The translations under genes and the position numbers were made by a program. 53,269 nucleotides of DNA from Coriobacteriia bacterium. GTDB lineage: Bacteria > Actinomycetota > Coriobacteriia > Anaerosomatales > JAGXFU01. This document shows, piece after piece, positions 7,576 to 35,569 of the stretch. Location of the stretch: positions 1 through 53,269 of the forward strand of contig JBGSMX010000007.1 of NCBI GenBank assembly GCA_041739935.1, written 5' to 3'. Within the stretch, counting starts at the first letter, position 1. Every line of letters begins with the position of its first letter. The notes beneath the pieces are model-generated. The model was not told the origin of the DNA and did not search any database. It saw only the letters and a list, made by a program, of their open reading frames with translations.

Positions 7576-8808
7576 CTAGATTCCGCGGTCGAGGTCTCTT
7601 GACGCCGTGCGAATCTCGCCGAAGAGTACGTCGGAGACGATCGATTCCTCGCCCCACGCCCCCAGTATGACCGTATTGACGTGGCCCTCGACCCGCGCCT
7701 GCTTCACGGCGACCTGCGCATCGAGCAGGGTAACCGAGCTTTCGAACGGAAAGCATGCGGGGCAGATTAGAACACGGCGGCAGCCCAGTGCCGCCAGATG
7801 CCGCACCGTCTCAGTGATGTCGGGCACCCGCCACTCGGCAAAGCACAGCTTGATGTTGTCGCGTGGGATTCCCTTGTCGGTCAAGATCATCCGAATTCGG
7901 TGCGCGAAGGAATTCTCTTGCACATCGAACGACGCGTGAGAGCGCTCCCACTCATCAGGCTGGCCGTGAAGAATCAGGGCGACGCCTGTTGCAGTCGGTT
8001 CGTCGCGGGCGCGCCATACTTGCTCCGCCACGTGCTCGGCGAGCGCCTCGGAGCCCCAGAGTGGGGGCGTGTACACCACTCGCATACCGTGGGTGTCCGG
8101 TCGCAACGTGTCCACGGCGGACTTGGCGCGATCGGTCACGTAGGATTCTGCCACCGACAAGGTCGCGACGATCACGTTGGCCACGCCCTGGGACGCAGCC
8201 CGGGCCACCGCTCTGTCGAGCGTGTCTCTGCCCACGCAAGACACGAACTCAAGGTATGCAATCGAGTCACCGAGCCTCTTCTCGAGGCGCTCGGCCACGG
8301 CCTGTGCCTGACGTGACGACGGGCTCGTGCCGCCCATAGCCCGGTACCGGGCCTTCTGCGAGGCGTAGAGAAAGGGAGTGATTCCCAGGGTTGCCTCGGG
8401 CAGCCCGGCCTGCGCGAGTCTGTCGAGCTCTTGCGTGATGGCAACAGGCTGGTACTTGCGGGGTTCGATGCAGCTCAGCAGCACGATGCCGGGCTTCGGG
8501 ACTCTGGGTTGGACCTGCTCCGGTAGGGTCGGCCGGCTGCGGTTCGAGGTCATGTACGGCAGAAGCGACGAAACCAGAGCGTAGCCGCCGCCAACCGATG
8601 CGAGCGACAGGCCAAGACCGGCCACTGTCATGTCGATTCGGTTGTAGGTATCGACTATCCCGATGATGCCCCACGTGCCGACGATCACGCCTGCGATGCC
8701 AAGGAGAAACGCGAGTGGTTCGCGGATCCTTTGCGCGACCAACAGACCCACGATCGAAGCGCCGACCGCGAGCCCTCCGACGAACACGGCAACCCACTCA
8801 ACAGTCAT
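7576..8808 (-). CDS. Ferrochelatase-family (class II chelatase) paralog with an N-terminal multi-TM anchor
   Basis: The ORF extends to 8922, but ATG 8808 (MTVEWVAVF...) follows GGGAGAAAC. About 100 aa of TM helices come first, then ferrochelatase-like blocks: QKARYRAMGGTSPSSRQAQAVAERL, VIVATLSVAESY, ALILHGQP. The C-terminal GF..DH.ET block is diverged (CFPFESSVT). Confidence 0.6.
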   Translation of the reverse strand: MTVEWVAVFVGGLAVGASIVGLLVAQRIREPLAFLLGIAGVIVGTWGIIGIVDTYNRIDMTVAGLGLSLASVGGGYALVSSLLPYMTSNRSRPTLPEQVQPRVPKPGIVLLSCIEPRKYQPVAITQELDRLAQAGLPEATLGITPFLYASQKARYRAMGGTSPSSRQAQAVAERLEKRLGDSIAYLEFVSCVGRDTLDRAVARAASQGVANVIVATLSVAESYVTDRAKSAVDTLRPDTHGMRVVYTPPLWGSEALAEHVAEQVWRARDEPTATGVALILHGQPDEWERSHASFDVQENSFAHRIRMILTDKGIPRDNIKLCFAEWRVPDITETVRHLAALGCRRVLICPACFPFESSVTLLDAQVAVKQARVEGHVNTVILGAWGEESIVSDVLFGEIRTASRDLDRGI

Positions 8809-8872
8809 CCGGCGTGTTTCTCCCGTCTCGCCTAATGGGATAAGAATACCTGTATGCAGCGCATCTGACACG

Positions 8873-8901
8873 TTGACGAGAAATACCCCTAGGGGTATAC
8901 T
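8873..8901 (+). promoter_or_regulatory. Sigma-70-type promoter of trxA with an embedded CsoR-family palindromic operator
   Basis: TTGACG (8873..8878), a 17-nt spacer, then TATACT (8896..8901). The perfect 16-bp palindrome ATACCCCTAGGGGTAT (8883..8898) fills the spacer and overlaps the -10. Confidence 0.7.
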
Positions 8902-8952
8902 GTTCCACGAGTCAGATAACACTCGTATTCGTATGTGACGGGAGAATGACCA

Positions 8953-9273
8953 ATGAGCGACTCTGTTAAGGACGTTTCTGAAGCTGATTTCACCGCCGAG
9001 GTGCTCGACGCGACAGTGCCTGTCGTCGTGGACTTCTGGGCGCCGTGGTGTGGTCCGTGCCGCGTCGTGGGGCCCGAGGTTGAGAAGCTCGCGACGCGTG
9101 TGGGCGACAGCGCCAAGTTCGTGAAGGTCAACGTTGACGATGCAAGGGATGTTGCGGTGAAGTACGGGATCATGAGTATTCCGACCATCGCTAAGTTCGA
9201 GCGCGGAGCTATGGTCTCGCAGGTCGTCGGCGCACGTGGCGCGGACGCGTTAGCTGCAGAACTCGGCCTCTAG
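8953..9273 (+). CDS. trxA: Thioredoxin
   Basis: 106 aa with the WAPWCGPC active site and the typical thioredoxin length. Confidence 0.95.
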   Translation: MSDSVKDVSEADFTAEVLDATVPVVVDFWAPWCGPCRVVGPEVEKLATRVGDSAKFVKVNVDDARDVAVKYGIMSIPTIAKFERGAMVSQVVGARGADALAAELGL

Positions 9274-9280
9274 GGATATC

Positions 9281-9487
9281 ATGCCTACGTACGAACTCAC
9301 GTGCGAGGACTGCGGAGAACGCTTCGATCTATTCGTGATGCGGATGCTGCGCGATGATGACAAGGTGTGTGTTGCGTGCGGTTCGCGTAACGTGAGGCGA
9401 GGATTTGGAGGAGGTGTCCTGGGCGTGGGCACGGCAGCGGCCGGCGTGACTGCCGCACCGTCGTGCTCGAGCGGCGGGTTCACCTGA
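9281..9487 (+). CDS. FmdB-family zinc-ribbon putative regulatory protein
   Basis: 68 aa. YELTCEDCGERF...CVACGS provides two CxxC pairs. The Gly/Ser-rich tail ending CSSGG is typical of the family. Confidence 0.8.
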   Translation: MPTYELTCEDCGERFDLFVMRMLRDDDKVCVACGSRNVRRGFGGGVLGVGTAAAGVTAAPSCSSGGFT

Positions 9488-9526
9488 GGATAGTCAGCGC
9501 CCGGTCGGGCGTGCGAAGGAGAGCTC

Positions 9527-9919
9527 GTGGACTACGCGTACAAGCGCGTTGGCACCAGGGATTTCAGCGAGACAATCGAAGCCGTGGAGCGCTCTGTGCG
9601 CGACCACGGCTTCGTCATTGAGCAGTTTCACGACATCAGTGCGCGGCTCGAGGCGAAGGGTTTCCCGATCAGGCAACTGGTGATCTTCGAGATCGGGCCG
9701 GCTCAGGAGAGCACCGACGACATGCTCCGGCTGCTCATGCCTTGCAGGATCAATGTCTACGAAGAAGGCGACGAAGTCGTGGTCGCAGCGTTGCGGCCCA
9801 CCCTGTTCAAGGCCGTCTTTCCCGAGCACGAGCTCGATGCGCTTGCGCAGAAGATCGAAGCGGACGTGGTTCGGGTCGTTGACGATTCCGTCGCGGAGCC
9901 CGGTTCGCGCGCTATCTGA
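9527..9919 (+). CDS. DUF302 domain protein
   Basis: 130 aa with a GTG start after GAAGGAGAG. The pattern ...GFVIEQFHDIS...LMPCRINVYEEGDEVVVAALRP matches the DUF302 signature. Confidence 0.75.
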   Translation: MDYAYKRVGTRDFSETIEAVERSVRDHGFVIEQFHDISARLEAKGFPIRQLVIFEIGPAQESTDDMLRLLMPCRINVYEEGDEVVVAALRPTLFKAVFPEHELDALAQKIEADVVRVVDDSVAEPGSRAI

Positions 9920-10499
9920 CGCAGTCCGAGTACTTGAGGAAGACGAGGATGGCCTCGTCGATGAGCTCGTCGCGACTCTGGCCCGCCTCCTCGATCAGGC
10001 ATCCCTTCATGGAATGGCCGAGGACTGCGAGTCCAACATCGCCGATCGCGGCGGTGGCACGAGACAGTTCGTTTAGCACCAACTCACATTCCGTGCCGTC
10101 CTCGAGAAGACGCTGAATATGCCGGATCTCGTCTTCGAGGGAGTGCAGTCTCGTGATCATCTGCATGGTATCTCCCGGCGAGATGCTCTTGGGGTCGGGG
10201 GTCGAAGCTGACAGACTTCGGTACCGAATGAACACCTCGAACGCGTCCTGGATCAGTTCATCGCGATCCTCGTGCGACCCGGTGGCGAGGCACGTCTTCA
10301 TCGAGTAGCCGATGATATGCATTCCGACCTGCGTAAGCGCGGACTTCGCGGCGAGAATCTGGGTGAGGACCGCCTGGCAGTCTTTCCGGGACTCGATCAT
10401 CGTTTGCAGTCCGCGCACCTGACCTTCGAGGCGCTTGAGACGGTTTATTATTCGGCGTCGCTCGGATTCGACCGTGATTTGGTCTGTCGTTTCGGGCAT
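9912..10499 (-). CDS. Tandem (fused double-domain) CsoR/RcnR/CstR-family metal- or thiol-sensing transcriptional repressor
   Basis: Two DUF156-type repeats sit in one 195-aa chain: IINRLKRLEGQVRGLQTMIESRKDC...GYSMKTC and ITRLHSLEDEIRHIQRLLEDGTEC...GHSMKGC. ATG 10499 follows AAGGAG; the GTG at 10514 in the ORF track would include that RBS. Confidence 0.85.
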   Translation of the reverse strand: MPETTDQITVESERRRIINRLKRLEGQVRGLQTMIESRKDCQAVLTQILAAKSALTQVGMHIIGYSMKTCLATGSHEDRDELIQDAFEVFIRYRSLSASTPDPKSISPGDTMQMITRLHSLEDEIRHIQRLLEDGTECELVLNELSRATAAIGDVGLAVLGHSMKGCLIEEAGQSRDELIDEAILVFLKYSDCVR

Positions 10500-10547
10500 C
10501 GTATCTCCTTGCACGCTATGCGCTAGAATTGGTCGTCACGACATACG

Positions 10548-10576
10548 AATATACCCCCTGGGGGTATGTTCCGCAA
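10548..10576 (-). promoter_or_regulatory. Sigma-70-type promoter of the tandem CsoR-family gene with an embedded palindromic operator (autoregulation)
   Basis: Minus strand reads TTGCGG (10576..10571), a 17-nt spacer, then TATATT (10553..10548). The operator ATACCCCCTGGGGGTAT (10551..10567) lies in the spacer and overlaps the -10. This is the same geometry as at trxA and ccdA. Confidence 0.65.
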
Positions 10577-10590
10577 GCCGGGGGATAGCT

Positions 10591-11535
10591 GTGTCAAACG
10601 AGGATACGTCCAGAGCCGAGAACACGGCAGCCCGAGTGCGCCAGATCAAGCGCGTCTTGTGGATCGTGCTCTTCTTGAACCTTGCCGTGGCAATCGCCAA
10701 GCTCACATGGGGGTATATCTCCGGATCGGTTGCCATGCAGGCAGACGGGTTCCATTCGCTGTTCGACGGAACTTCGAACGTGATCGGGCTCGTGGGCATC
10801 GGTATGGCCGGCCGACCTGCCGACCGCGATCACCCCTACGGTCACGGCAAGTACGAATCGTACGCTTCTCTCGCGATAGGCATAATGCTCGCGCTCGCCG
10901 CATACAACGTGGGATCCAACGCCGTGGCAAAGCTCATGCAGGGCGGCGAGCCGGCCAGGGTGGATGCCATTTCCTTTGCCGTGATGTTCGGCACCCTACT
11001 CGTGAACCTCATCATCACGACATACGAGCGTCGCGTGGGCAAGCGGATCGGGAGTGAGATACTCGTAGCAGATGCCGCGCACACGGGCAGCGACGTGTGG
11101 GTGAGTCTGAGCGTGATCGCGGGTCTTGTTGCTGTGAGGCTCGGGTATCCGGCCGTCGATCCGATCGTTGCCCTCGTCGTCGCGGGCGTCATTGCGTGGA
11201 CTGCGTTCGGTATCTTCAAGCAGGCCACCGCAACGCTGTCTGACACCGCACGTATCCCGCCAAGTGACGTATGCGCGGCTGCGTGGACTGTGCCGGGAGT
11301 CCTGGGCTGCCATCACGTTCGGACTCGCGGCACCGAAGCCGAGACCTACGTCGATCTGCACGTCCAAGTGGATCCCGCCATGAGCGTCGAGCAAGCTCAC
11401 GCCGTGAGTGCCGATGTCGAGAAGCTCATCTGCGACTCGTTTCCTGCGGTTGTCGATGTCGTGGTCCATATCGAGCCGCTGGACCCCTATCAGCAGTCAA
11501 AGACCGCCGAGGAGATCGATGCCGGACTCGCCTAG
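10591..11535 (+). CDS. Cation diffusion facilitator (CDF) family divalent-metal efflux transporter
   Basis: In-frame GTG 10591 follows GGGGGA; the upstream part of ORF 10435.. overlaps the divergent gene. Six TM segments, the motifs ADGFHSLFDG and DAAHTGSDVWVS, and a C-terminal cytoplasmic domain are present. Confidence 0.85.
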   Translation: MSNEDTSRAENTAARVRQIKRVLWIVLFLNLAVAIAKLTWGYISGSVAMQADGFHSLFDGTSNVIGLVGIGMAGRPADRDHPYGHGKYESYASLAIGIMLALAAYNVGSNAVAKLMQGGEPARVDAISFAVMFGTLLVNLIITTYERRVGKRIGSEILVADAAHTGSDVWVSLSVIAGLVAVRLGYPAVDPIVALVVAGVIAWTAFGIFKQATATLSDTARIPPSDVCAAAWTVPGVLGCHHVRTRGTEAETYVDLHVQVDPAMSVEQAHAVSADVEKLICDSFPAVVDVVVHIEPLDPYQQSKTAEEIDAGLA

Positions 11536-12499
11536 GCACCGCGCGCATCCCGAGGCGTGGAAGGGCTATGCGCTCGCAACGATGGCGGCGGTGTTCTGGG
11601 CCACCGGCGGACTGGTCGCGAAGTGGCTGTTCACGCCGCTCGACGCAGCGAGCGCTCAGTGGCCCCTGCCTCCGCTGGGCATCGAGGCGGCGCCGGCGGT
11701 TCTTGCTGGTGCGCGCGCCTTGAGCGCAGCTGTGCTCTTGCTGGTATACGTGGGGATCTTCCGACGGGATGAGCTGCGCATCCGTACTCGTGACATTCCC
11801 TTTCTCGCCTTCTTCGGGATAGTGGGACTCGCCGGATTGCATGTTTCCTACTTCTTTGCGATTGCTAACGCCAACGTTGCGACGGCAGTGCTCCTCGAGT
11901 ATCTAGCGCCGGTCATCGTCCTCGTGTTCTCGGTGGGCTTTCTCGGGGAGCGCTTCACGTGGGCGCTACCGGTGGGAGTGGCGCTGTCCGTGACGGGCTG
12001 TGCTCTCGTTGTGGGCGCGTTTGGCTCGTCGGGACTGGACGTCTCGCCTGCCGGTATTGCCTGGGGCCTCGCCGCCGCAGGGTTCTTTGCCCTCTATCAA
12101 CTCATGGGCAGATGGGCTGCGCCCCGCTTCTCCCCGTGGACCTTGCTGACCTATGGCCTACTTGCCGCGTCGGTGTTCTGGATCGTGTTCCTGGGCGGGC
12201 TCGTTTCAGTCATGCGGCTCGTTTCAACCGTCGGCGGTCTGGCAGCCGTTATCTACGTCGCCGTGATGTCGACCATCATCCCGTTTGCCGCCTCGCTCAA
12301 GGCTTTGCACTATATCGATGCAACGAAGGCTGTCGTCACCTCGACCCTGGAGCCGGTCATCGCGGGTATTCTCGCCTGGTTTCTGCTTGCAGAGTCCTTC
12401 AGTTCCTTGCAGATTCTTGGTGGTGGGCTCGTACTGGCCGCGATCGCGATCGTTCAGCGCTCTGAGAGGCAGGTTCCCAGCTTGCCGCCGGCCCTCTGA
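11519..12499 (+). CDS. EamA/DMT-family transporter
   Basis: ATG 11519 overlaps the CDF stop. There are ten predicted TM helices in two EamA-like repeats (AVFWATGGLVAKW..., ALYQLMGRW...). Confidence 0.75.
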   Translation: MPDSPRHRAHPEAWKGYALATMAAVFWATGGLVAKWLFTPLDAASAQWPLPPLGIEAAPAVLAGARALSAAVLLLVYVGIFRRDELRIRTRDIPFLAFFGIVGLAGLHVSYFFAIANANVATAVLLEYLAPVIVLVFSVGFLGERFTWALPVGVALSVTGCALVVGAFGSSGLDVSPAGIAWGLAAAGFFALYQLMGRWAAPRFSPWTLLTYGLLAASVFWIVFLGGLVSVMRLVSTVGGLAAVIYVAVMSTIIPFAASLKALHYIDATKAVVTSTLEPVIAGILAWFLLAESFSSLQILGGGLVLAAIAIVQRSERQVPSLPPAL

Positions 12500-12545
12500 G
12501 CTTCGGGCCTACACACAACCTCCACGACAGAACCGCCGTTCAAAG

Positions 12546-12561
12546 TGGTATATAAATTGCT
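12546..12561 (+). promoter_or_regulatory. Ambiguous promoter upstream of rpoN: a -24/-12-spaced motif TGGTATATAAATTGCT that also reads as an extended -10 (TGgTATATA)
   Basis: The GG (12547-8) to GC (12559-60) spacing equals that of the sigma-54 consensus TGGCAC-N5-TTGC. The same bases contain TGnTATATA, a sigma-70 extended -10. The motif lies 30-60 nt upstream of the rpoN start candidates. Confidence 0.35.
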
Positions 12562-12565
12562 AGGC

Positions 12566-12583
12566 GCGCGCCCGCGGGCGCGC
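12566..12583. repeat. Perfect 18-bp GC palindrome in the rpoN leader
   Basis: GCGCGCCCGCGGGCGCGC is self-complementary. It lies between the candidate promoter and the rpoN start. Confidence 0.9.
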
Positions 12584-12591
12584 TGATCGAG

Positions 12592-14019
12592 ATGTTGTTC
12601 GGCGGTCGGAAGGCATCAGGCGTGGAACTCGTACAACGCACTGAACTCAGACAGAAGATCACGTTGTCGCCCCAGGTCTATCAGGGGCTGAATATCCTCG
12701 CCATGCCCATCGCCGAGCTCGAGCTGCTCGTCGAAGCCGAGCTGCTCGAGAACCCGGTGCTCGAAGTCGAGGAACCCGAGGTCGACGATACGGCAGACGA
12801 GTTTGATGAACGCTCCGAATCTGAAGAGGACGACAGGGCGTGGGACGAGTGGCTCGACATGTACGACGAGCTCGAATCAACTGACACTTCCGGGCCGCGC
12901 GACCCGAATGAAGAGACGGCCAATACCGAGGAGTTCGTAGGCGGTGCTCTGACCTTCGATGACTACCTCAACGAGCAAATCGGACTTCTCGACATCTCCC
13001 CCGAGTGCGCACGAGCTGCCCGCGCAATCGTTGGCTCACTGGACAAGGATGGCTTCTTCGTGGGCCGGTGCTCTGAGGTTGCTGCGGTGGCTGACGTGAG
13101 CTCCGAGATCGCCGAGGAGGCCCTGAGGGTTGTACAGCAATTGGATCCGCCTGGTGTCGGGGCGCGCAATCTGGGCGAGGCGCTCCGGTTGCAGATGGAC
13201 TACCTGGGTTTGGAGGAGCCCCTGCTCGACGTGATCGTCTCGGATTACCTCGATGATGTTGCAGCGAACCACTACCGCAAGATCTCGAGGGCCCTGCGCA
13301 CCGATGAAGACGAGGTTCGCCGCATCGTCGGAATCCTGCGCACCTTGAATCCGCGACCGGCAGGCGCCTTCTCCCCGGGGCCGTCGCCGGGCTACATCGT
13401 CCCGGACGTCACGCTGCGCAGGTTCGACGACGAGTGGCTTATCACCCCAAACAGCGAGTCCGTACCGACCTTGCGGGTCAGCCCGCGCTATCGCTCGATG
13501 CTGCGTTCGGGCTCCTCGGCAGATGACGATACGCGCCGCTATCTGAAAGACAAGATTCGCTCGGCAGAAAGCTTCATTCGCAACGTGGATCGCCGCAAAG
13601 ACACGGTCAGTCGGATAACGGAGATCATCCTCGACGTGCAGGGTGAGTTCTTCGAGGACGGCAAGGGGCTGCTCAGGCCGCTGAGGCTTGAAGATGTGGC
13701 CGTCGAGCTGGGGGTCCACCTTTCGACAGTCAGCCGGGGGGTGACCGGAAAGTACATGGCCACACCGTACGGGCTGTTCGAGCTCAAGCACTTTTTCTCG
13801 GGCGGATATCGTACGCGCACCGGCACCGATGTGGCATCGACGAGTATCAAGCAGCGGCTGCGAGAAATCGTGAAGGACGAGAATCCGGGGAAGCCATATT
13901 CGGATCAGAAGCTCGCCGAGATGCTTTCGGACGAGGGTGTCACGGTGGCCCGCCGGACGGTGGCGAAGTACCGTGAGGAGCTCGGCATCGAGCCCTCGTG
14001 GGCACGGAGGCGCCGATGA
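12592..14019 (+). CDS. rpoN: RNA polymerase sigma-54 factor
   Basis: 475 aa. Region I is Leu/Gln-rich (LRQKITLSPQVYQGLNILAMP). Region II is acidic (EPEVDDTADEFDERSESEEDD). An HTH (LEDVAVELGVHLSTVSRGV) and the RpoN box ARRTVAKYRE are present. An alternative GTG start lies at 12622, after GGAAGG. Confidence 0.93.
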   Translation: MLFGGRKASGVELVQRTELRQKITLSPQVYQGLNILAMPIAELELLVEAELLENPVLEVEEPEVDDTADEFDERSESEEDDRAWDEWLDMYDELESTDTSGPRDPNEETANTEEFVGGALTFDDYLNEQIGLLDISPECARAARAIVGSLDKDGFFVGRCSEVAAVADVSSEIAEEALRVVQQLDPPGVGARNLGEALRLQMDYLGLEEPLLDVIVSDYLDDVAANHYRKISRALRTDEDEVRRIVGILRTLNPRPAGAFSPGPSPGYIVPDVTLRRFDDEWLITPNSESVPTLRVSPRYRSMLRSGSSADDDTRRYLKDKIRSAESFIRNVDRRKDTVSRITEIILDVQGEFFEDGKGLLRPLRLEDVAVELGVHLSTVSRGVTGKYMATPYGLFELKHFFSGGYRTRTGTDVASTSIKQRLREIVKDENPGKPYSDQKLAEMLSDEGVTVARRTVAKYREELGIEPSWARRRR

Positions 14020-15544
14020 CCGAGACGGCCGGGACGGACGCGAAAGCGAACGGCAGCTCTGACGACGCCGGTCGTGCGCGCACGTACCGCGCAGTTTCCA
14101 TAATCGTCGGAATGCTGGTCACGGTCACTGTGTTGCAGCTCTACACGAACACGCTGGACCAAAGCGTGGGCCTGCACCTGCTGTACCGGCGGCTGTACTA
14201 CGTGCCGATCCTCTACGCCGCCTTCGTGTTCGGGAAGAAGGGGGGAGCACTCGCAGCATTTGCGGCCTCCGTCCCGTTCGCGTTGCATGCGCAGATGTCG
14301 CTTGGCGGCCTGTTTGGGGTGCACGTAGACAACTCTTTCGAGATCGTCATGTACTTCGTAGTCGGAGTGCTTTTCGGTGCACTGAGGGACATGGAGGAGC
14401 GCAAGACACGCGATCTGCGACTCGTTTCCGTCCGGCTCGAGGACGCCTATCGCAAGCTCGAGGAACGAGCGATCCAGCTAATAAACATCCAGGACTACAC
14501 ACAATCGATTCTGCGTTCAATCACATCCGGCGTGCTCACGGTGGGTCCCGACGGTTCGATTACGACGATCAACCCGGCTGCCGAACGTATGCTCGGCGTC
14601 TCCGAGTACGACATCGTCCCCAAGCCGATAGGGTCGATCTTCCGCGATGACGGTGGGCTCAGCGCCGACGTTGATAAGGTGCTCTCGGGCAGGCTCCCGC
14701 TCACGCTAAGGGAGATCACAGTCGTGACGCGAGGGGGTCGAACGGTACACGTCCAGGCGTCGACATCGCGAATGCGAGCGGTTGGCGGCAGGATCCTTGG
14801 AGCTGTTGTCACCGTGGAGGACATCTCGGAGATCAAGACCCTCACCGCGCAGCTGATCCGTGCGGATCGCCTCGCGGCTATGGGCGAACTCACGGCCGGA
14901 GTCGCGCACGAGGTTCGCAATCCGCTGGGCGTCATACGGGCCTCCGTGCAACTGCTCGAAGACGCCAACTGCGACCGCAAGCGAATCCACGAGGCAGCAG
15001 CGGTGATCAAGCAAGAGATTGACCGCCTCGACAGGGTGATCAAGGCGCTTCTCGATTTCGGGCGCCCCAGTAAGCCGACGCTGCTGCAGACGGACATCGA
15101 GCAGGTATTGCAGGACGTGCTGCTGTTTACCGGTCGTTTTGCCAAGCAGGCTGATGTGAAGATCGAGTACGCTTTGGCGGGCGACCTGCCCAGGGTGACT
15201 GCGGACCCGGACCAGCTCAAGCAGGTGTTCCTGAATCTGGTGACGAACGCTGTACAGGCCATGGAGGGTCTGGGAGGAAGAATCTCGGTCGAGACCGGAT
15301 CTGACGGGGATTTCGTCCATATTTCTTTTGCGGACACGGGACCGGGCATCCCTGCATCCGACTTGGGTAAGGTCTTCGATCCCTTCTTCTCCACACGCGA
15401 CGACGGGACCGGGCTCGGGCTCACGATCGTGCATAGGATCATCGACGAGCACGATGGGCATATCGAAGTAGGAAGCGGGCCAGAGGGGACGGTCTTTCGG
15501 GTCTCGCTGCCGATCGCTGTTGCAAACGGCGCGAAGGGGAGTCA

Positions 15545-15548
<4 letters not shown>
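14016..15548 (+). CDS. Membrane sensor histidine kinase (membrane-embedded N-domain, PAS, HisKA, HATPase; NtrB/AtoS-like)
   Basis: ATG 14016 forms an ATGA overlap with the rpoN stop. The H-box AHEVRNPLGVI, N box NLVTNAVQA and G boxes DTGPGI / GTGLGL are present. A PAS block (ILRSITSGVLTVGPDGSITTINPAAERMLG) is also seen. Confidence 0.9.
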
Positions 15549-16894
<1,346 letters not shown>

Positions 16895-16927
16895 TTTTCG
16901 AACGAAACGGCGCAAGACCCTCGTGCT

Positions 16928-16943
16928 TGGCACATCGCTTGCA
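16928..16943 (+). promoter_or_regulatory. Consensus sigma-54 (-24/-12) promoter
   Basis: TGGCACATCGCTTGCA equals TGGCAC-N5-TTGCA with exact spacing. It starts 34 nt after the activator stop and ends 39 nt before the GTG 16982 (RBS AAGGAG at ~16970). Confidence 0.8.
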
Positions 16944-16981
16944 CTGTCCGAGGCGTTGGGATCGGCAGTCAAGGAGCGGTC

Positions 16982-17344
16982 GTGTCGCGCGTTTCGGTCA
17001 GGCATATGGTAACAGCGCTGGGCAGCGGTTTCGTTGCCGGCGTGCTCATGCTGGCTGTTCTTGCGCTGCTCAACGGCGGAATCGGATTCGGCTCGTGTAC
17101 CGCGATGACGGGCCTCGGGTGGATCGTACCGCTTGTTGCGGGACTGATCATCGGCGGGGTCGCGCTTGTGCTTCTCGACACTTCGCAGTCGAATGCCGAC
17201 TCCTCGGCGGACACCCTTCGCGCTTCTACATGCGCGTCGTGCGGTAGCCCCATCATCTCAGAGTGGCGCATGTGTCCGCATTGCGGCGCATTGCTCGAGT
17301 GCGACATGGCCGTCTCCACGGCCACCAGCATTCCTGAGCTCTAG
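16982..17344 (+). CDS. Small membrane protein with a C-terminal zinc ribbon
   Basis: 120 aa. Two hydrophobic helices are followed by CASCGSPIISEWRMCPHCG (CxxC-N10-CxxC). Confidence 0.6.
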   Translation: MSRVSVRHMVTALGSGFVAGVLMLAVLALLNGGIGFGSCTAMTGLGWIVPLVAGLIIGGVALVLLDTSQSNADSSADTLRASTCASCGSPIISEWRMCPHCGALLECDMAVSTATSIPEL

Positions 17345-17356
17345 ATCAGCGAGAGG

Positions 17357-18649
17357 ATGCTCGTGGAGATCCTTCTTCCTATGCTAGGTCTGGGCCTCGT
17401 CACCAGCTTCCACTGTGTCGCCATGTGCGGCGCGCTGGTCGTCACCTATGCAGTCAAGGACGGCCCGACTGGCTCCGTGTGGCATCGGTTGACGCCACAC
17501 CTGACGTACCAATCGGCGAAGATAGCGAGCTACGTCGTCGTGGGATTGGTGCTGGGCGCCATCGGTGCGGCGTTCGATCTGGCCGGGATTCGCGGATGGG
17601 TGATGCTCGCGGCGGGTCTGTTCATGATCTTGCTGGGAATCAACATGACCGGGCATTTCCCGTTGCTTCGCAAGCTGACGCTCAAGCCACCCAAGGCGCT
17701 CGTGCGCGCGCTGTCAACGAACCGAAAGAAGGCGCGCGCTCAGGCACTCGAAGGGCGAACATCTCTCACAACGCCACTGGTGTTCGGTCTGCTCACAGGT
17801 CTCATGCCGTGTGGGCCCCTCCAGGCAGCCCAACTTACGGCCGCAGGTACCGGCAGCGCGGCGACCGGGGCGATTGCGATGCTTGGCTTTGGCCTGGGTA
17901 CCGCGCCGCTCATGATCGCGTTCGGAGTGGGCTCCGGCTACCTGGGTGAGGTCTTCAAACGGCGGATGAACTGGGTCGCGGCGGCCGTCATCATCATCCT
18001 GGGTCTCGTCCTGTTCAACCGCGGGTCGATGCTCGTGGGCTCACCCGTGACGTTCCAGTCAGCGCGGCAGATAGTCACGAGCAGTGTTGCACCGGCAGCC
18101 GAGCCTGCCGAGTTTCGCACCGCGGCCGATGGCGTGGCGGAGATCGATCTGGTAATCGAGAACACCAGGTTCGTTCCCGAGACTGTCAACATCCCCGCCG
18201 ACACGCCGGTGCGAATCATCGTGGATAGGCGCGAGGACAACACGTGTTCGGACCAGCTGGCCATTCCGCAGGCCGGAGTGCTTGCGGATCTCGCGCCATT
18301 CTCTACCACAGCTGTGGACGTCCCGCCGCTCAGCGAGGGAACGTACACCCTCACATGCGGAATGGGGATGATGTCGGGGCGCGTCATCGCCGGGGCCTCG
18401 ACAGGCGGCGTTGCGGGTAGTCCGCTGCTCGGCCTGGGAATCGCTGCCGTGATTCTGGGTGCAGCGGGTTATGCGCTCACAAGGCGGGAGAGTCCGCGCA
18501 GTCGGGAGGTATGCCCCGCTCCCGCTGGTTCGCCCGCGGCCGGTACGGGTAGGACGATTCTTGGGTTCAGCCCTGCCGAGCTGTTGGTTGTGTGCGGCGT
18601 TATCGCGGCGGCAGTGATCGCGGGATTGGCGCTCGGTGGAGTTTTCTGA
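17357..18649 (+). CDS. DsbD_2/UreH-like polytopic membrane protein fused to a cupredoxin_1-like domain and C-terminal TM helices
   Basis: 430 aa. The N-terminal SFHCVAMCG motif and a later LMPCGP are typical of the DsbD_2 (COG2836) family. Residues ~260-345 (AEIDLVIENTRFVPETVNIPADTPVRIIVDRRED...YTLTCGMGMMSGRVI) match the cupredoxin-like domain common next to copA. Confidence 0.7.
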   Translation: MLVEILLPMLGLGLVTSFHCVAMCGALVVTYAVKDGPTGSVWHRLTPHLTYQSAKIASYVVVGLVLGAIGAAFDLAGIRGWVMLAAGLFMILLGINMTGHFPLLRKLTLKPPKALVRALSTNRKKARAQALEGRTSLTTPLVFGLLTGLMPCGPLQAAQLTAAGTGSAATGAIAMLGFGLGTAPLMIAFGVGSGYLGEVFKRRMNWVAAAVIIILGLVLFNRGSMLVGSPVTFQSARQIVTSSVAPAAEPAEFRTAADGVAEIDLVIENTRFVPETVNIPADTPVRIIVDRREDNTCSDQLAIPQAGVLADLAPFSTTAVDVPPLSEGTYTLTCGMGMMSGRVIAGASTGGVAGSPLLGLGIAAVILGAAGYALTRRESPRSREVCPAPAGSPAAGTGRTILGFSPAELLVVCGVIAAAVIAGLALGGVF

Positions 18650-18665
18650 CAGATGGCGGGTTAAC

Positions 18666-18681
18666 TGGCACATCGTTCGCA
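18666..18681 (+). promoter_or_regulatory. Sigma-54 (-24/-12) promoter, near-identical to the one at 16928
   Basis: TGGCACATCGTTCGCA matches 14 of 16 positions of the 16928 motif, with conserved GG/GC spacing. It starts 17 nt after the preceding stop and ends 38 nt before the copZ ATG (RBS GGAGGAGAGG). Confidence 0.7.
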
Positions 18682-18718
18682 TTTAGCGGATTGAAGCACA
18701 CGGAGGAGAGGCAAGAGC

Positions 18719-18931
18719 ATGGCTGTTGAGGAGAGAGTACTCAAGACGACCGGGATGCACTGCCGTTCGTGCTCGATGTTGGTGGATATGACCGTGGGCG
18801 ATCTCGAGGGTGTTCAAAGCGTCGAGACCGACTACGTCACCGGCGACACCAAGCTGAAGTTCGACCCTGATGCGGTCTCAGTCGGCGAGATCATCAACGC
18901 GATTCGTTCGGCCGGATACGACGCCGAGTAG
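18719..18931 (+). CDS. copZ: Heavy-metal-associated (HMA) copper chaperone
   Basis: 70 aa with GMHCRSC (MxCxxC) near the N-terminus and ferredoxin-like HMA length. Confidence 0.85.
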   Translation: MAVEERVLKTTGMHCRSCSMLVDMTVGDLEGVQSVETDYVTGDTKLKFDPDAVSVGEIINAIRSAGYDAE

Positions 18932-18978
18932 CGCCACCGGTACAGTGCAGTCAAATCCTGCGAAAGGAACCCGACACA

Positions 18979-19503
18979 ATGAGTGAGACGACGACATACA
19001 TGACCTCGAACCGCACGAAGTACATTCTGGTGGCGGTAATCGTGGTACTCGCGTTCTTCGCCGCCTATGGCATCGCCTCGGGCCGCTCGTCGAGCGCGGC
19101 AAACGCATCCGCTCCCGCCACAACCGCCGGCACGCCTGTGGCATGCGATCCCGCTGCTGCCGCCGGAACGTCGGAGTGTGGCGGTTCGTGCTGTGGCACG
19201 GGCGGCGAGGCGGTCGAGAACTCGGGTTCGGCGGTGGTCGAAGGCGACGTGCAAAGGATCTCGATCGATGTCTCGGCCGGTTACTTCGATCCGAGCATCA
19301 TCGTGGTGAAGGCCGGCGTACCGGTGGAAATCACATTTGGCGAGGGCACCGGATGCATGGCCGAGGTCATGTTCAAGGACTTCGCGGTATTCGAGGACCT
19401 CACCGAAGGCGGTGCTGTCGTCAGTCTGCCCGCGCTCGAGCCCGGCGAGTACGAGTTCTCGTGCGGCATGGAGATGGTATTCGGGACTGTCGTCGCCCAA
19501 TAG
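18979..19503 (+). CDS. Membrane-anchored Cys-rich cupredoxin_1-like protein
   Basis: 174 aa. An N-terminal TM is followed by the Cys cluster ACDPAAAAGTSECGGSCCGTGG. The cupredoxin-like block (ISIDVSAGYFDPSIIVVKAGVPVEITF...YEFSCGMEMVFGTVV) is paralogous to the C-domain of 17357..18649. Confidence 0.65.
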   Translation: MSETTTYMTSNRTKYILVAVIVVLAFFAAYGIASGRSSSAANASAPATTAGTPVACDPAAAAGTSECGGSCCGTGGEAVENSGSAVVEGDVQRISIDVSAGYFDPSIIVVKAGVPVEITFGEGTGCMAEVMFKDFAVFEDLTEGGAVVSLPALEPGEYEFSCGMEMVFGTVVAQ

Positions 19504-19524
19504 CGCGCACGTGCGCCCGAACCC

Positions 19525-19555
19525 GGGGGTCCGTGCCGCAAGCGGCCGGGCCCCC
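19525..19555 (+). other. Strong GC hairpin in the 109-nt spacer upstream of copA (possible attenuator or partial terminator)
   Basis: GGGGGTCCG(T)GCCGC-AA-GCGGCCGGGCCCCC is followed by TTCACATAGGTTTCTCG. It is preceded by the 12-bp perfect palindrome GCGCACGTGCGC (19505..19516). Confidence 0.4.
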
Positions 19556-19612
19556 TTCACATAGGTTTCTCGTCCGCCCCACGACAGGCGGGCGTAGATT
19601 GGGAGTGAAATC

Positions 19613-22246
19613 ATGAACGACTCCACGACTGCGGCGAGAACCGCAGACGACGAATCGATTGCAGCCGAATCCGAGGCCGTGTTCGCTGTCACCGGAATGA
19701 CGTGTGCCTCGTGCTCCGCCATCATCGAGAAGACCCTCGGTAAGACAGAGGGGGTCGACACGGCCAACGTGAACCTCGCTGCCGAGAAGCTCACCGTGCG
19801 CTACGACCCGGCGCTGATCGACATAGACGCGATAGTAGGCGCGGTCGAAGGGGTCGGGTACGGCGCTTCTCCGATGTCTGCAGCGCATCCTGCTGAGATC
19901 AAGGCCGGCCGTATCACCCTGGCCGTCACAGGTATGACGTGCGCTTCGTGCTCTGCGGTCGTGGAAAAGACACTGGGTAGGCTCACCGGGGTGTCCTCGG
20001 CAGCTGTCAATCTCGCCAACGAGACGGCGACGGTCGAATTCGACCCAACGCTGCTCGGGCCCGACGAGCTGATTGCGGCAGTCAAGAACGCCGGCTACCA
20101 GGCAAGCGTGCTACCCGGCGTCTCCGGCTCGGTCGCGGCGGATTCGGGAGACGCGCAGCGCGAGGCGCAGCGTGCGTACTACAGGCACCAGCGCAACCTA
20201 CTCATCTTTGCTGCGTCGCTTTCGATCCCGCTGTTTCTGATAGCGATGGTTCCGCCGTTCATGGAACTCGTGCCCATGTGGGTGGCCTCATGGTTCGGCA
20301 TCATGGACGAGGAAGGCGTGATGCAGGTCCACAAGTACCTGATGCTGCTCATGGCCGCGCCGGTTCAGTTCTATGCAGGTGCCCAGTACTACCGTGGTTT
20401 CTGGCATGCGATCAAGCGGCGTACAGGCAACATGGACACGCTGATCGCGATAGGCACGACCGCGGCGTTCGCGTACAGCGTCGCCGCGACGTTCTGGTTG
20501 TTCGACGAGCCCGTGTTCTACGAGACCAGCGCACTGCTCATCACGTTCGTGCTTCTGGGCAAGATGCTCGAGGCGCGAGCGAAGGGGCGCACGGGTGATG
20601 CGATCAAGAAGTTGATGGGTCTGGCCGCCAAGACCGCTCGCGTGGTCAGAGGCGGAGAGAGCATCGACATCCCGGTCGAGCAGGTCGTAGTGGGTGACAT
20701 CGTGGTGGTCCGTCCGGGCGAGAAGGTGCCGGTCGACGGCGTCATTATCGACGGCTCGTCGGCCGTGGACGAATCGATGCTCACGGGCGAATCGATTCCG
20801 GTGGAGAAGAACGCATCAGACACCGTTATCGGCGCGACCATCAACAGACTCGGCAGTTTCCGTTTCCGGGCCACGAAGGTCGGCTCGGATACTGCGCTGG
20901 CTCAGATCATCCGACTCGTTGAGGAAGCGCAGGGTTCGAAGGCGCCGGTCCAGAGGTTCGCGGACCGGATCAGCGCGGTGTTCGTTCCCACAGTCGTCTC
21001 GATCGCCTTCGGCACGTTCCTGTTCTGGTACTTCGCAGGACCGGCGATCTTTGGCGCTGTCCCCGATCCATCGCAGTACGCAACCATTCTGCATCCGATT
21101 CTCGAGGCAGCCGCAGCGAGTGGGTGGTTCGTCGCCGCGCTGCTCGCGGGTACCGCCACCGTTGTGATCGCGTGCCCGTGTGCGCTGGGGCTGGCAACTC
21201 CCACGGCCATCATGGTCGGGACCGGCAAGGGCGCTGAGAACGGCGTCCTCATCAAGAGCGGGGAAGCACTCGAGACCGCTCATGCGATCGACGCGATCGT
21301 TTTCGACAAGACCGGAACCCTCACTCATGGCGAGCCGGTCGTCACCGATGTTGTCGCTCTGAATGGATACGACCCCGATCGAGTCCTGTTGTTGGCCGCC
21401 TCGCTTGAGCAGGGCAGCGAGCATCCGCTCGCAGAGGCTATCGTCAACGGCGCGAAAGAGCGCGGACTCGGCCTTTCGCAGGCGACGGAGTTCCTCGCAG
21501 TCCCCGGGCACGGCGTCGAGGGTACCGTCGAAGGCACCCGCGTGGCGCTTGGCAATCGCAAACTCATGCTCCGCGAAGGCGTGGATCTCAGCGACCGCGA
21601 GGAGCAGATCTCGCGCATGGAGAGCGAGGGCAAGACCGTGATGGTGGTTGCGCTCGACGGCGCTGGCGCGGCCGGGCTGATCGCGGTGGCGGACACCATC
21701 AAGGAGAATTCCGGGGCCGCCGTTGCGCGGCTGTCCCAGATGGGCATCGCGGTCTACATGATCACGGGAGACAACCGGCGCACTGCCGAGGCTGTCGCCC
21801 GGGTTGCGGGTATCCCTACCGACCACGTCTTGGCCGAGGTTCTGCCCGAGCACAAGGCCGAGGAAGTCGCAAAGCTGCAGGCGGGCGGTCTGAAGGTCGG
21901 TATGGTCGGCGATGGCATCAACGACACGCCGGCACTGGCCCAGGCCGATGTGGGTGTTGCCATGGGTACCGGCGCCGATGTTGCCGTCGAGACCGGGGGC
22001 GTCGTTCTCATTCGCGATGATCTGCGCGATGTAGTGGGCGCCATCGAGCTTTCCCGGGCTACGATGCGAAAGATACGGGCGAACTTCTTCTGGGCGCTCG
22101 GCTACAATTCGCTGGGCATTCCTGTCGCCGCGTTAGGTCTTCTGTCCCAGGTCCCGTGGATAGCAGGGGCAGCGATGGCATTCTCGAGCGTGAGTGTGGT
22201 GACCAATTCACTGCTGCTGCGCAGGTTCAGGCCGACCCTACGGTAG
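19613..22246 (+). CDS. copA: Copper-translocating P1B-type ATPase with two N-terminal HMA domains
   Basis: 877 aa. GMTCASC occurs twice. The CPC motif ([11 protein letters not shown]), the DKTGTLT phosphorylation site, and the TGDN and [10 protein letters not shown] motifs are present. Confidence 0.95.
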
Positions 22247-22261
22247 TGGCTGGCAAGAGCC

Positions 22262-22290
22262 TTGCGGTGGGATACCCCAGGGGGTATAGT
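22262..22290 (+). promoter_or_regulatory. Sigma-70-type promoter of ccdA with an embedded CsoR-family operator
   Basis: TTGCGG (22262..22267), a 17-nt spacer, then TATAGT (22285..22290). The operator ATACCCCAGGGGGTAT (22272..22287) lies in the spacer and overlaps the -10. Confidence 0.65.
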
Positions 22291-22292
22291 GT

Positions 22293-22326
22293 GAGACCCC
22301 GGAGCTTGCGGGTTTGCCGGGGTCTC
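22293..22326 (+). other. 10-bp stem hairpin at the predicted 5' end of the ccdA transcript / 3' of copA
   Basis: GAGACCCCGG-N14-CCGGGGTCTC, with no clear T-tract afterwards. Confidence 0.4.
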
Positions 22327-22395: not shown

Positions 22396-23121
22396 ATGAG
22401 TGAGTCGATTGGCATCGTCGCGGCGTTTCTTGCCGGCGTCATGTCGTTTCTCTCGCCCTGCGTGATTCCTCTGATTCCGGCTTACCTGTCCTTCATCACC
22501 GGCTTCACGCCCGCTGAGCTTTCTGACAAGAAGCTCGGCATCAAGGCAGTGCTCGTGCCAAGCCTGCTCTTTGTTGCCGGTTTCTCCTTCGTGTTCGTCG
22601 CGCTGGGAGCTTCTGCGTCCGTACTCGGTGGGTTCTTCTCCGAGTATCGCGAGTTGCTCGTTCAGCTCTCCGGGATCCTCGTTTTTGTGCTGGGATTCTT
22701 CATGCTCGGTGTGATCAAGGTGCCGTGGTTGTACGGCGAGGCGAGATTCGAGATGGGCAAGGCCCGCTCGTTCGGGCGCGCGGCGGCGTTCGTCGTAGGG
22801 GCGGCGTTCGCCTTCGGCTGGACGCCGTGCGTCGGCCCTATCCTCGGCTCGATACTCGCTCTGGCGGGGTCGACCGGAAGCGTGGCGCAAGGCGCGCTGC
22901 TGCTGTTGGCCTACTCGCTCGGTCTCGGCGTGCCGTTCATCTTGACAGCACTTCTGTTCGGGAAGCTGCGTACCACGCTGGGCTGGCTCAATCGCCATGC
23001 TCTGATCATTAACCGGGTTGCCGGCGTCTTGCTCATGACGGTCGGCGTGCTGATCTTCTCCGGTCAGCTCGGTCGCCTGGCCGGCTGGCTCACGTCTGTA
23101 CTGCCGTCCATCGAGCTCTAG
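22396..23121 (+). CDS. ccdA: Cytochrome c biogenesis / thiol-disulfide transmembrane electron transporter CcdA (DsbD family)
   Basis: 241 aa, six TM segments. The conserved motifs FLSPCVIPLIPAYL and WTPCVGPILG carry the two essential Cys. Confidence 0.9.
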   Translation: MSESIGIVAAFLAGVMSFLSPCVIPLIPAYLSFITGFTPAELSDKKLGIKAVLVPSLLFVAGFSFVFVALGASASVLGGFFSEYRELLVQLSGILVFVLGFFMLGVIKVPWLYGEARFEMGKARSFGRAAAFVVGAAFAFGWTPCVGPILGSILALAGSTGSVAQGALLLLAYSLGLGVPFILTALLFGKLRTTLGWLNRHALIINRVAGVLLMTVGVLIFSGQLGRLAGWLTSVLPSIEL

Positions 23122-26200: not shown

Positions 26201-26483
26201 GGTCAACGCCGAATACGACCAGATTGACGTGCCCTTTGGCGCTGATGACGTGCTCGTTCTCTACACCGACGGCGTTACTGAGGCCCGTCGTGGGAATAAG
26301 TTCTTTGGCGAAGGGCGTGTGAGGCGAGCTGTGGGTGCGGGTGGCAGCGCGAACGATGTAGTCGATCGGCTGCTTGGCTCTCTCGACAGATTCGTTCCGG
26401 GCGCGCTTCGCGACGACGCGGCGATTCTTGCGGTGCGTATGCGGACAAGCAGCGAGCGCGACACGGCGGCGATAGAGACATGA
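23244..26483 (+). CDS. Giant sensor PP2C (RsbU/SpoIIE-type) phosphatase: TM, Cache-like extracytoplasmic domain, TM, HAMP, multiple GAF domains, PP2C
   Basis: 1079 aa. Two TM helices flank a ~250-aa extracytoplasmic region. HAMP block (RRLVAPLRSLESH...VGRLAEAFNALA), at least two or three GAF-like repeats, and C-terminal GGDYFDLY...AIGDVCGKGVEAA...LYTDGVTEA are present. Confidence 0.85.
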   Translation: MARETRSDSLASNMMVLTLMLVTVSVTIISLAALAGVYDLARDQVAVSHQAVREVFSVEVDSRLAASTRVLDAASAILIDPSAEAVDRKALALQFDAGIEYIDQLIVANEDGTTVAAYPALEAGTTVADLPVYKAGVTDVTSFYYDEVDSDESLWVCRAVEGPLGEQIVLARVRTTFLDLLVREFSSTTDRRIVSIVDAGDRVLYSGASDVAVVADSIEFSPDDGAEAGAVNALTTEGSVMWGQYAGLRSYPGIDWRLLVIEPRATMVESTWRALTPAVIALLMTGVISFSLAALFARRLVAPLRSLESHALEAVSGAYVPPIRTDRRDEVGRLAEAFNALALRLNALQDLSQLLASSSSLDQVLDGILSAMGHIVGTTNIAVLLVDDSRTHLIVARSRGVTDADDLVIPLRGHNWLSQALESTGPATFSGMREDMLRALPGIAGTGTVSGLVAPLQAGTEPLGIIIVIQRDERLFSQAEMEMVRTFSAQAAVAVYNSRLFEIESASRREAEAMRTVAEALANPLDLQRSFDTVMQITLRLFAVASATIAFMDRPALGLPPAEDIMTERLLLSAWRAGWATGDGDLVTRVSPGDDPLIDRYLESRHASEALFLTVMRAEHPCAVVSLEIDRPGRMFTAHERSLAYALGKQLALALDNAFHYSEARLRAANLETIFRISQAVSSSLQIKVVLNRVLDVVQKIFSADTVSLMQFDDATKTVETAMARGIISTEMLHFTCLPGQDVPGRVFEAGEPIKVDDLYAVETTLAQIALGQGLHSMLAVPLLARGRSIGVLTIFSALPSAFTSEDMGLLHTFASQAALAIDTAALYGREHHVASVLQSSILPKSLPEYDEIESSSVYLPAGEEVEIGGDYFDLYKDTDGKIVMAIGDVCGKGVEAATKTSMIKYLVRGLVAAGLDPAAVLSEVNRAVSESGDTSDIVTLWLGYLDLEAGLIRYADGGHPPAVIRRAETGRTELLETTGALLGAMVNAEYDQIDVPFGADDVLVLYTDGVTEARRGNKFFGEGRVRRAVGAGGSANDVVDRLLGSLDRFVPGALRDDAAILAVRMRTSSERDTAAIET

Positions 26484-35411: not shown

Positions 35412-35485
35412 TGGAGGCGACGCCCGGATTCGAACCGGGGATGAGGGCTTTGCAGGCCCCTGCCTTGCCACTTGGCCACGTCGCC
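35412..35485 (-). tRNA. tRNA-Cys (anticodon GCA), CCA encoded
   Basis: The minus strand reads GGCGACGTGGCCAAGTGGCAAGGCAGGGGCCTGCAAAGCCCTCATCCCCGGTTCGAATCCGGGCGTCGCCTCCA. It has a 7-bp acceptor, 3-bp D stem, anticodon loop CUGCAAA, a GGTTCGAATCC T-arm and discriminator U. Confidence 0.95.
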
Positions 35486-35569
35486 GTTTGGGCGCGGGTT
35501 TCGCGCTTATCAAGAAGGCCGGCCTCGTTGGGCCATTTCGGTCCCTCGGGCCGACCTTCGTGGTGTCGT

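Follow-up and report, generated by a model that had tools for sequence, protein, structure and literature searches.

Three copies of one G/C-tract palindrome occur in the 53,269-bp stretch of DNA from a Coriobacteriia bacterium analysed here (contig JBGSMX010000007.1; the whole stretch is referred to as the window hereafter): one in front of the thioredoxin gene trxA, one in front of the gene of a tandem CsoR-family protein, and one in front of ccdA. The question raised by this arrangement is which protein acts on the palindromes, which genes are controlled through them, and to what signal the control responds. An earlier reading of the sequence (the original prediction) regarded them as operators of the CsoR-family protein, which would govern a compact set of thiol-redox genes and leave copper efflux to sigma-54. 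As described below, it is very likely, judging from sequence and conservation, that the palindromes are operators of this repressor (encoded at 9912–10499), its tandem form and induction through its thiols being included in this view. The set of controlled genes, on the other hand, appears to be wider than originally proposed.

The pattern ATACCCC-N2-3-GGGGTAT was found exactly three times in the window (operators a, b, and c in Table 1), while dinucleotide-preserving shuffles gave no match. A looser scan for TACCCC-N1-5-GGGGTA returned the same three sites, and ATACCC-N3-6-GGGTAT, searched over the whole window with up to 2 mismatches, revealed no fourth one, in agreement with the original remark that only half-sites were seen elsewhere. 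The three sites also share the geometry described originally, which was verified by hand counting on the sequence: the palindrome fills the N17 spacer between the −35 and −10 hexamers, and its right half-site ends in the TAT with which the −10 hexamer begins. Site a lies between trxA and the divergent ferrochelatase-like gene. It is intergenic, because the homologues (405–416 aa) of the longest open reading frame spanning it (7576–8922, minus strand) start at 8808, and this long frame was rejected.

An alternative is that palindromes of this kind are repeats of chance or structural origin, RNA hairpins, terminators, or the sites of another factor. Such an explanation could draw on the weak −35 elements at sites b and c (see below) and on site c, which follows the copA stop codon at a distance of 26 bp, a place that would suit a terminator. 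However, a loop of 2–3 nt cannot form a hairpin, no T-tract is present, the terminator scan was negative, and no Rfam family matched, so that hairpins, terminators, and known RNAs were all discarded as candidates. The number expected in the window was 0, and a CsoR gene adjoins in the 79 evaluable loci. When the excess of sites in the relatives and the match to a biochemically defined CsoR operator, both given below, are added, a non-operator origin becomes extremely improbable.

Whether the hexamers flanking the palindromes are sigma-70 promoters, as had been claimed, is answered differently for the individual sites by consensus strength: a generic sigma-70 scanner called promoter a (10 of 12 matches) and passed over promoters b and c, whose −35 elements agree with TTGACA at 3 of 6 positions. 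Because of this low consensus strength, the promoter status of b and c rests on conservation in relatives. For the comparison, one genome per GTDB species was used, which gave 80 loci (1.38 Mb) from uncultured metagenome-assembled genomes of Actinomycetota, Coriobacteriia, or Anaerosomatales. All of the 80 loci carry the same syntenic gene cluster, and the whole gene order is common to the contigs of seven tandem relatives of the repressor (49–84% identity). Sites were counted per position as exact TACCC-N2-8-GGGTA in evaluable loci only. At the trxA promoter, 65 of 66 loci have an exact site, and the spacing is N4 in 65 of 65. Between csoR and the CDF exporter gene, the site is exact in 76 of 79 loci and has one mismatch in another; its spacing is N5 in 76 of 76. 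Upstream of ccdA, 35 of 57 loci have an exact site with N4 or N5 spacing, and three more have one with a single mismatch. Outside these positions, 6 relaxed sites were found in the 80 loci, and they belong mostly to the same classes in rearranged loci. For the strict pattern ATACCC-N4-5-GGGTAT, the relatives' loci contain 178 sites, as compared with 0.13 expected from shuffles.

In the surroundings of the sites, the intergenic flanks have diverged, but the register of −35, operator, and −10 is retained. The operator-anchored consensus is TTGACA...ATACCC-N4-GGGTATAcT at trxA (65 species), TTGC..-ATACCC-N5-GGGTATAnT toward csoR (76 species), and GGGTATAnT at ccdA (35 species). This is a strong phylogenetic footprint, which suggests that the three operator-promoter units are functional, the poor −35 hexamers of b and c notwithstanding. 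Likewise, the repressor gene is probably under its own operator, as had been predicted, since site b sits on the csoR promoter and is kept in 76 of the 79 species. The ccdA gene was also assigned to the regulon originally; its site is variable, and ccdA is the least constant regulon member. The ccdA orthologues at the same position in the relatives are 47–80% identical.

The position of site b in a 92-bp divergent region, with csoR on one side and the CDF gene on the other, was not mentioned originally and raises the possibility of a fourth controlled promoter; the start codons of the CDF and EamA genes were checked for this region. In the operator-anchored alignment, the bases following GGGTAT in the CDF direction are not conserved, and therefore no CDF −10 overlaps operator b. 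The candidate TATGTT (10565–10570) within the right half-site was accordingly replaced by a box further upstream: a TAnnnT box (TACAAT, TAGAAT, or TATCAT) occurs 17–23 nt upstream of operator b in 60 of 76 species, as compared with about 10 of 76 for other 7-nt windows. Operator b would then probably lie at about +10 to +30 of the CDF–eamA transcript, which would start just upstream of the operator. Thus, the CDF and EamA genes are very probably also under the control of site b, and the original description of the regulon as purely one of thiol-redox proteins is not supported.

The same argument does not extend to the divergent gene at site a. A −10-like box 34–40 nt past the operator was seen in only 33 of 65 loci, and operator a would sit upstream of the −35 of the ferrochelatase-like gene, which is thus unlikely to be controlled and is not counted as a target. 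A conserved block, GGATACCTGTA/AGAATACCTGTA, was found at 8843–8856 near the start of this gene and includes an ATACC string resembling a half-site; it probably contains the −10 of the gene, TATTCT on the minus strand.

Several observations weigh against the view that one repressor governs all of these promoters. One is the weakness of the −35 elements at sites b and c, already mentioned. Another is that site c is missing in about one third of the species, including the close relative L007. The CDF promoter was called from a −10-like box alone, its −35 not being conserved. Finally, all of the related loci were found by searching for the repressor, so that the joint occurrence of repressor and operator is in part a consequence of how the sample was drawn. 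Even so, the arrangement of one repressor, three operators, and four promoters with autoregulation is supported by the sequence together with its conservation.

The identity of the binding protein is suggested by the palindrome itself. The claim that it belongs to an established class of CsoR operators was borne out: it matches the Streptomyces type-2 consensus ATATACCCCTNAGGGGTATAT, of which the S. lividans copZA1 site is GATACCCCCTAGGGGTATA (PMC3902906). A type-2 operator accommodates two tetramers, which bind by way of the TAC/GTA repeats and the G-tracts, and the R57A and Q81A substitutions in S. lividans CsoR abolish the DNA-binding signal (PMC3902906). Only one gene with a PF02583 domain was found in the window, and it adjoins site b. 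Its product resembles S. lividans CsoR in having RLxR in alpha-1 and Gln in alpha-2, in addition to the nearly identical operator, which occurs in variants of 16–19 bp. There, three sites exist per genome (csoR, copZA1, and copZA2), autoregulation included; here, three were counted in the window. Unlike that system, the targets in the present cluster are trxA-fmdB-DUF302, ccdA, and CDF-eamA rather than copZA, and the sensor lacks the His of the C-H-C set and consists of two domains fused in one chain, of which one is degenerate with respect to DNA binding.

The two halves of the repressor differ in their DNA-binding motifs. Domain 1 (about residues 8–97) and domain 2 (about residues 111–194) are 38% identical to each other. 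Domain 1 keeps the DNA-binding motifs RLKR and LTQ, corresponding to RLxR in alpha-1 and the Gln in alpha-2, and N19, R20, R23, G26, Q27, R29, G30, T46, and Q47 are invariant in 29 of 29 aligned tandem homologues. The corresponding motifs in domain 2 are RLHS and LNE, at positions that are not conserved in these 29 homologues. Both domains keep the Cys X/Cys Z pair (C41/C70 and C138/C167): C41, C70, and C167 are invariant in the 29 tandem proteins, and at least 90% of them have C138 and C193, the latter being a third Cys kept in domain 2. An extra Cys is located three residues from the C-terminus in a tail reading ...KYSxC[VI]x, and this tail Cys was found in 75 of the 80 species. At the canonical His position Y (Z−4), Ser or Ala occurs in both domains and in 80 of 80 species, and Z−5 is variably H, Y, or F. 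No conserved N-terminal His was found in the alignment of the tandem homologues and the 80 species, the N-terminus being variable. The same signature of Cys residues without the His is seen in the single-domain orthologues.

The AlphaFold2 model of the repressor has six helices (pLDDT 82, pTM 0.76), and in a Foldseek search each half matched the CstR, InrS, FrmR, and CsoR folds at TMt 0.64–0.74. For the whole tandem model, Foldseek found no single-chain equivalent in the PDB, the full-length matches being generic helical bundles with a root-mean-square deviation above 20. The PDB sequence matches were likewise CsoR, InrS, CstR, and FrmR, the best being Cu(I)-CsoR 4m1p (E=5.8e-12). The tandem form is rare: about 30 full-length relatives were found among 5.8 billion proteins, while single-domain relatives of about 110 aa, 55–69% identical to the first half of the repressor, are many and represent the commoner form in the clade. 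In a HMMER search of 1.84 billion representatives at 50% identity, seven matched most or all of the tandem protein at E of about 1e-30 or better, and a handful of more distant candidates of 177–193 aa also appeared. No relevant paper on fused or tandem DUF156 proteins was found in the literature searched.

The absence of the His bears directly on the signal. Because the His ligand is replaced by Ser or Ala throughout the family, the repressor is, by its sequence, not a canonical Cu(I) CsoR. The term CsoR-type in the original prediction obscures this lack of the Cu(I) His ligand. In a network of the CsoR superfamily, x-C-H-C proteins are Cu(I) sensors and x-C-x-C proteins are persulfide sensors, while several clusters are uncharacterised (PMC8643695). 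The present protein shares with CstR of S. aureus, E. faecalis, and S. pneumoniae, and with actinomycete cluster 3 of the sequence similarity network, the x-C-x-C set, a residue other than His at position Y, and an Asp before Cys X (PMC8643695); its 'KDC' motif ahead of Cys X is as in the aligned CstR sequence. The fold is also the same (7mq1, TMt about 0.7, probability 1.00). From the x-C-x-C set, the Asp before Cys X, the TrxA and CcdA targets, and the lack of any copZ or copA operator in 80 species, we tentatively favour covalent modification of thiols of the CstR type (by persulfide, disulfide, or electrophile stress) as the effector, although even this preferred assignment falls somewhat short of an even chance.

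Two points stand against a thiol effector. One is that no gene for a sulfurtransferase, persulfide dioxygenase, SQR, or TauE was detected by Pfam in the window and the seven related loci, so that the regulon differs in this respect from those of CstR. Another is that, where a metal exporter gene is divergent from the regulator, the effector is usually a metal; the metal-type CDF exporter under the same operator, and the extra conserved C-terminal Cys as well, are unlike CstR. Thiolates that release zinc on oxidation would, in our reasoning, fit a Zn-type exporter combined with a thiol-stress signal. A CsoR-like protein whose DNA binding is lowered by a disulfide and whose regulon is not one of metal efflux is already known, namely TTHA1953 of Thermus thermophilus; its motif, unlike the present one, lacks G/C tracts, and the Sox genes that it controls are remote from the gene encoding it (PMC10318464).

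An alternative, possible but rather doubtful, is that the regulon senses Cu(I) after all: three Cys residues would form an all-thiolate trigonal site, Cu(I) would release the repressor, and TrxA and CcdA would repair the copper-induced mis-oxidation of envelope thiols, complementing a sigma-54-driven copZ/copA. The cluster always contains copZ and often a cupredoxin gene, the DsbD_2-cupredoxin gene, and copA. Moreover, the operator is the same as that of the Streptomyces Cu-CsoR, the repressor matches Cu(I)-CsoR 4m1p best among PDB sequences, as mentioned above, and a role in Cu sensing has been proposed for uncharacterised CsoR clusters that have cop neighbours (PMC8643695). Against this, the His of x-C-H-C is Ser or Ala in every member, its neighbour being variably H, Y, or F, and the operator was never found upstream of copZ or copA in the 80 species. 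Before Cys X, Asp or Glu is present, not the second-shell Tyr that is typical of Cu-CsoRs. To our knowledge, CDF transporters are not established as Cu(I) exporters. The best NCBIfam match of the repressor, below the cutoff, is RicR, which may be taken as a further point for copper. RicR of M. tuberculosis likewise acts at several dispersed promoters through a TACCC...GGGTA-type palindrome and has targets beyond efflux pumps; it is, however, a C-H-C copper sensor, and its targets lpqS, mymT, socAB, and mmcO are unrelated to those found here.

Still less likely, in our estimate, is a sensor of Zn, Cd, Co, or Ni of the RcnR or DmeR–DmeF type, in which the Cys-rich site would sense the substrate of the divergent CDF exporter and TrxA and CcdA would provide accessory protection against thiol damage by thiophilic metals. 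A repressor gene divergent from a cation exporter gene (a CDF protein in the case of DmeF) with a common intergenic operator is the arrangement of the Ni/Co systems RcnR–RcnA and DmeR–DmeF. The exporter itself points in the same direction: it aligns to YiiP/FieF in the PDB alignment, has an H-D/H-D transport site, and has the Zn-efflux family Cdf31 as its best NCBIfam match, below the cutoff. In addition, the tail Cys and the CDF gene were lost together. The repressors of five species (L067, L071, L074, L075, and L085) lack the C-terminal Cys; they are single-domain, and NLPESWP replaces KYSxCV at their end. Of these species, 5 of 5 lack the CDF gene and 4 of 5 lack trxA; operator b is kept in 5 of 5, and L074 keeps both trxA and the trxA site. 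On the other side, neither the H-C-H-H nor the H-C-H-C set is present here, the N-terminal His (W) and the His at Y of the Ni/Co sensors both being lacking; the operator is of type 2, unlike TACT-G6-N-AGTA of the RcnR type; and thioredoxin and CcdA are added. We know of no natural Zn-sensing member of the CsoR family. Only the engineered FrmR variant E64H is known to respond to Zn (PMC4528141).

With thiol modification as the preferred signal, the regulation may be pictured as follows. The unliganded, reduced repressor would bind each of the 16–17 bp G/C-tract palindromes. At the trxA, csoR, and ccdA promoters, it would cover the spacer and the first half of the −10, and RNA polymerase would be excluded because the site fills the −35/−10 spacer and covers half of the −10. 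At the CDF–eamA promoter, the repressor on site b would lie just past the start point and block open-complex formation or promoter escape, so that a single complex on site b would shut both of the face-to-face promoters. The fused chain would act as a pseudo-dimer in which DNA is bound by residues of domain 1 and domain 2 serves mainly for sensing, and two chains would make the usual four-domain particle, because each chain consists of two fused CsoR domains. Induction would proceed through the cysteine thiolates, namely the invariant Cys X and Cys Z and the C-terminal third Cys, in the absence of the His. The genes thus released would be those of a TrxA-to-CcdA reductant relay, the FmdB Zn-ribbon and DUF302 proteins, the CDF and EamA exporters, and the repressor itself, which points to a response that combines thiol stress with metal release, and not to classical copper efflux.

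In this arrangement, one cysteine-based switch would link the TrxA-to-CcdA relay with a Zn-type CDF exporter. The kind of system as a whole is already known; the new elements are a sensor with three Cys and no His, and a natural fusion of two CsoR domains. The analysis yields a well-supported and experimentally tractable prediction for an uncharacterised CsoR branch with three Cys, no His, and a KYSxC tail, whose hosts are uncultured anaerobic Actinomycetota of a widespread clade. It is still unsettled in what way CsoR tetramers contact DNA and allostery arises from asymmetric effector sites; the tandem form could help to address this because it has only one DNA-binding-competent domain per chain.

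The copper genes of the cluster appear to be controlled separately, as had been proposed. No CsoR operator with up to 2 mismatches was found in the window upstream of copZ, copA, or the DsbD_2 gene, and none upstream of copZ in the 80 loci. Instead, −24/−12 elements are located at 16928–16942 (TGGCACATCGCTTGC; upstream of the gene for the Zn-ribbon membrane protein and of the DsbD_2 gene, with a counterpart in 57 of 80 loci) and at 18666–18680 (TGGCACATCGTTCGC; upstream of copZ). The copZ, cupredoxin, and copA genes would thus be driven by sigma-54 promoters without the operator. In 80 of 80 loci, rpoN lies inside the cluster and is followed by the genes of a PAS histidine kinase and an NtrC-type activator, and in 71 of 80 it is preceded by TGGTAY-N5-TTGC (TGGTATATAAATTGC at 12546–12560 in the window). 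Sigma-54 seems to be private to the cluster and positively autoregulated; the phylum is usually described as lacking it. As the terminator scan of the window called none in the interval from eamA to rpoN, transcription from the CsoR-controlled promoter may run on into rpoN.

These features can be combined into a more far-reaching scheme with three parts: a natural single-chain CsoR in which a functional asymmetry such as that reported for CstR tetramers is hard-wired, one half binding DNA and the other only sensing; a His-less subfamily with three Cys, hitherto uncharacterised, which detects thiol stress, or a thiophilic metal by means other than the classical Cu(I) site; and a repressor that, via the CDF–eamA transcript, gates the sigma-54/NtrC-type module driving copZ, the cupredoxin gene, and copA. 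Taken jointly, the three parts are unlikely to hold. If they did, they would represent a two-tier cascade from CsoR to sigma-54 in Actinomycetota.

Genes were called from Pfam and NCBIfam matches (Table 1), which agree with the identities originally given to trxA, fmdB, the DUF302 gene, the tandem CsoR gene, and ccdA.

Table 1 Genes of the cluster and putative regulatory elements in the window
Feature	Position	Strand	Remarks
Ferrochelatase/CbiX-like gene	7576–8808	−	
Putative trxA promoter	8873–8901	+	−35 TTGACG 8873–8878, N17, −10 TATACT 8896–8901; from sequence and scanner
Putative operator a	8883–8898		ATACCCCTAGGGGTAT, 16 bp, ATACCC-N4-GGGTAT; exact pattern match
trxA	8953–9273	+	
FmdB-type CxxC Zn-ribbon gene	9281–9487	+	
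DUF302 gene	9527–9919	+	
Tandem CsoR-family repressor gene	9912–10499	−	195 aa; two PF02583 (CsoR/RcnR) domains; Pfam E=2.6e-33, 2 stretches
Candidate CDF–eamA −10	10524–10529	+	TAGAAT; conserved TAnnnT box
Putative csoR promoter	10548–10576	−	−35 TTGCGG (reverse complement of 10571–10576), N17, −10 TATATT (reverse complement of 10548–10553)
Putative operator b	10551–10567		ATACCCCCTGGGGGTAT, 17 bp, ATACCC-N5-GGGTAT; common to the divergent csoR and CDF genes; exact match
CDF cation exporter gene	10591–11535	+	
EamA/DMT transporter gene	11519–12499	+	17-bp overlap with CDF gene
rpoN	12592–14019	+	
PAS histidine kinase gene	13998–15548	+	
Sigma-54 activator gene	15545–16894	+	NtrC-type
Small membrane protein gene	16982–17344	+	C-terminal Zn ribbon
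DsbD_2-cupredoxin fusion gene	17357–18649	+	
copZ	18719–18931	+	
Cupredoxin gene	18979–19503	+	
copA	19613–22246	+	
Putative ccdA promoter	22262–22290	+	−35 TTGCGG 22262–22267, N17, −10 TATAGT 22285–22290
Putative operator c	22272–22287		ATACCCCAGGGGGTAT, 16 bp; exact pattern match
ccdA leader hairpin	22293–22326	+	GC-rich, strong, GAGACCCCGG...CCGGGGTCTC; directly after the ccdA −10
ccdA	22396–23121	+	DsbD_TM family thiol-disulfide electron transporter; Pfam PF02683
HAMP-GAF-GAF-SpoIIE phosphatase gene	23244–26483	+	
STAS + HATPase_c_2 gene	26480–27268	+	Anti-sigma-type kinase

Some further features were found in and around the cluster. The trxA–FmdB–DUF302 operon, whose gene order is the same in the relatives, converges on csoR, and its 3′ end shares 8 bp with the stop-codon end of that gene. 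At ccdA, the 108-nt leader containing the hairpin has a folding energy of −43.9 kcal/mol (z = −2.0), and the relatives have GC-rich hairpins at the same place, which are non-homologous and not kept in sequence; the hairpin may stabilise the 5′ end, act as an attenuator, or terminate the cop operon that precedes it. A sigma-54-like sequence overlapping the −35 of site c, TGGCAAGAGCCTTGC (22251–22265), was rejected: it is absent in the orthologous regions, and the matches with 1–2 mismatches numbered 52, as compared with 48 expected.

The separate cupredoxin contains the Cys-rich stretch CGGSCCG. It is possible that this protein and the DsbD_2-cupredoxin fusion (17357–19503) are extracytoplasmic partners of the TrxA-to-CcdA relay. 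The HAMP-GAF-GAF-SpoIIE gene adjoins ccdA in nearly all of the related loci that reach that far, and its presence with the STAS/HATPase_c_2 gene suggests that a partner-switching module is linked to the cluster. Finally, three tRNA genes are located at 35415–35885, two on the minus strand and one on the plus strand.

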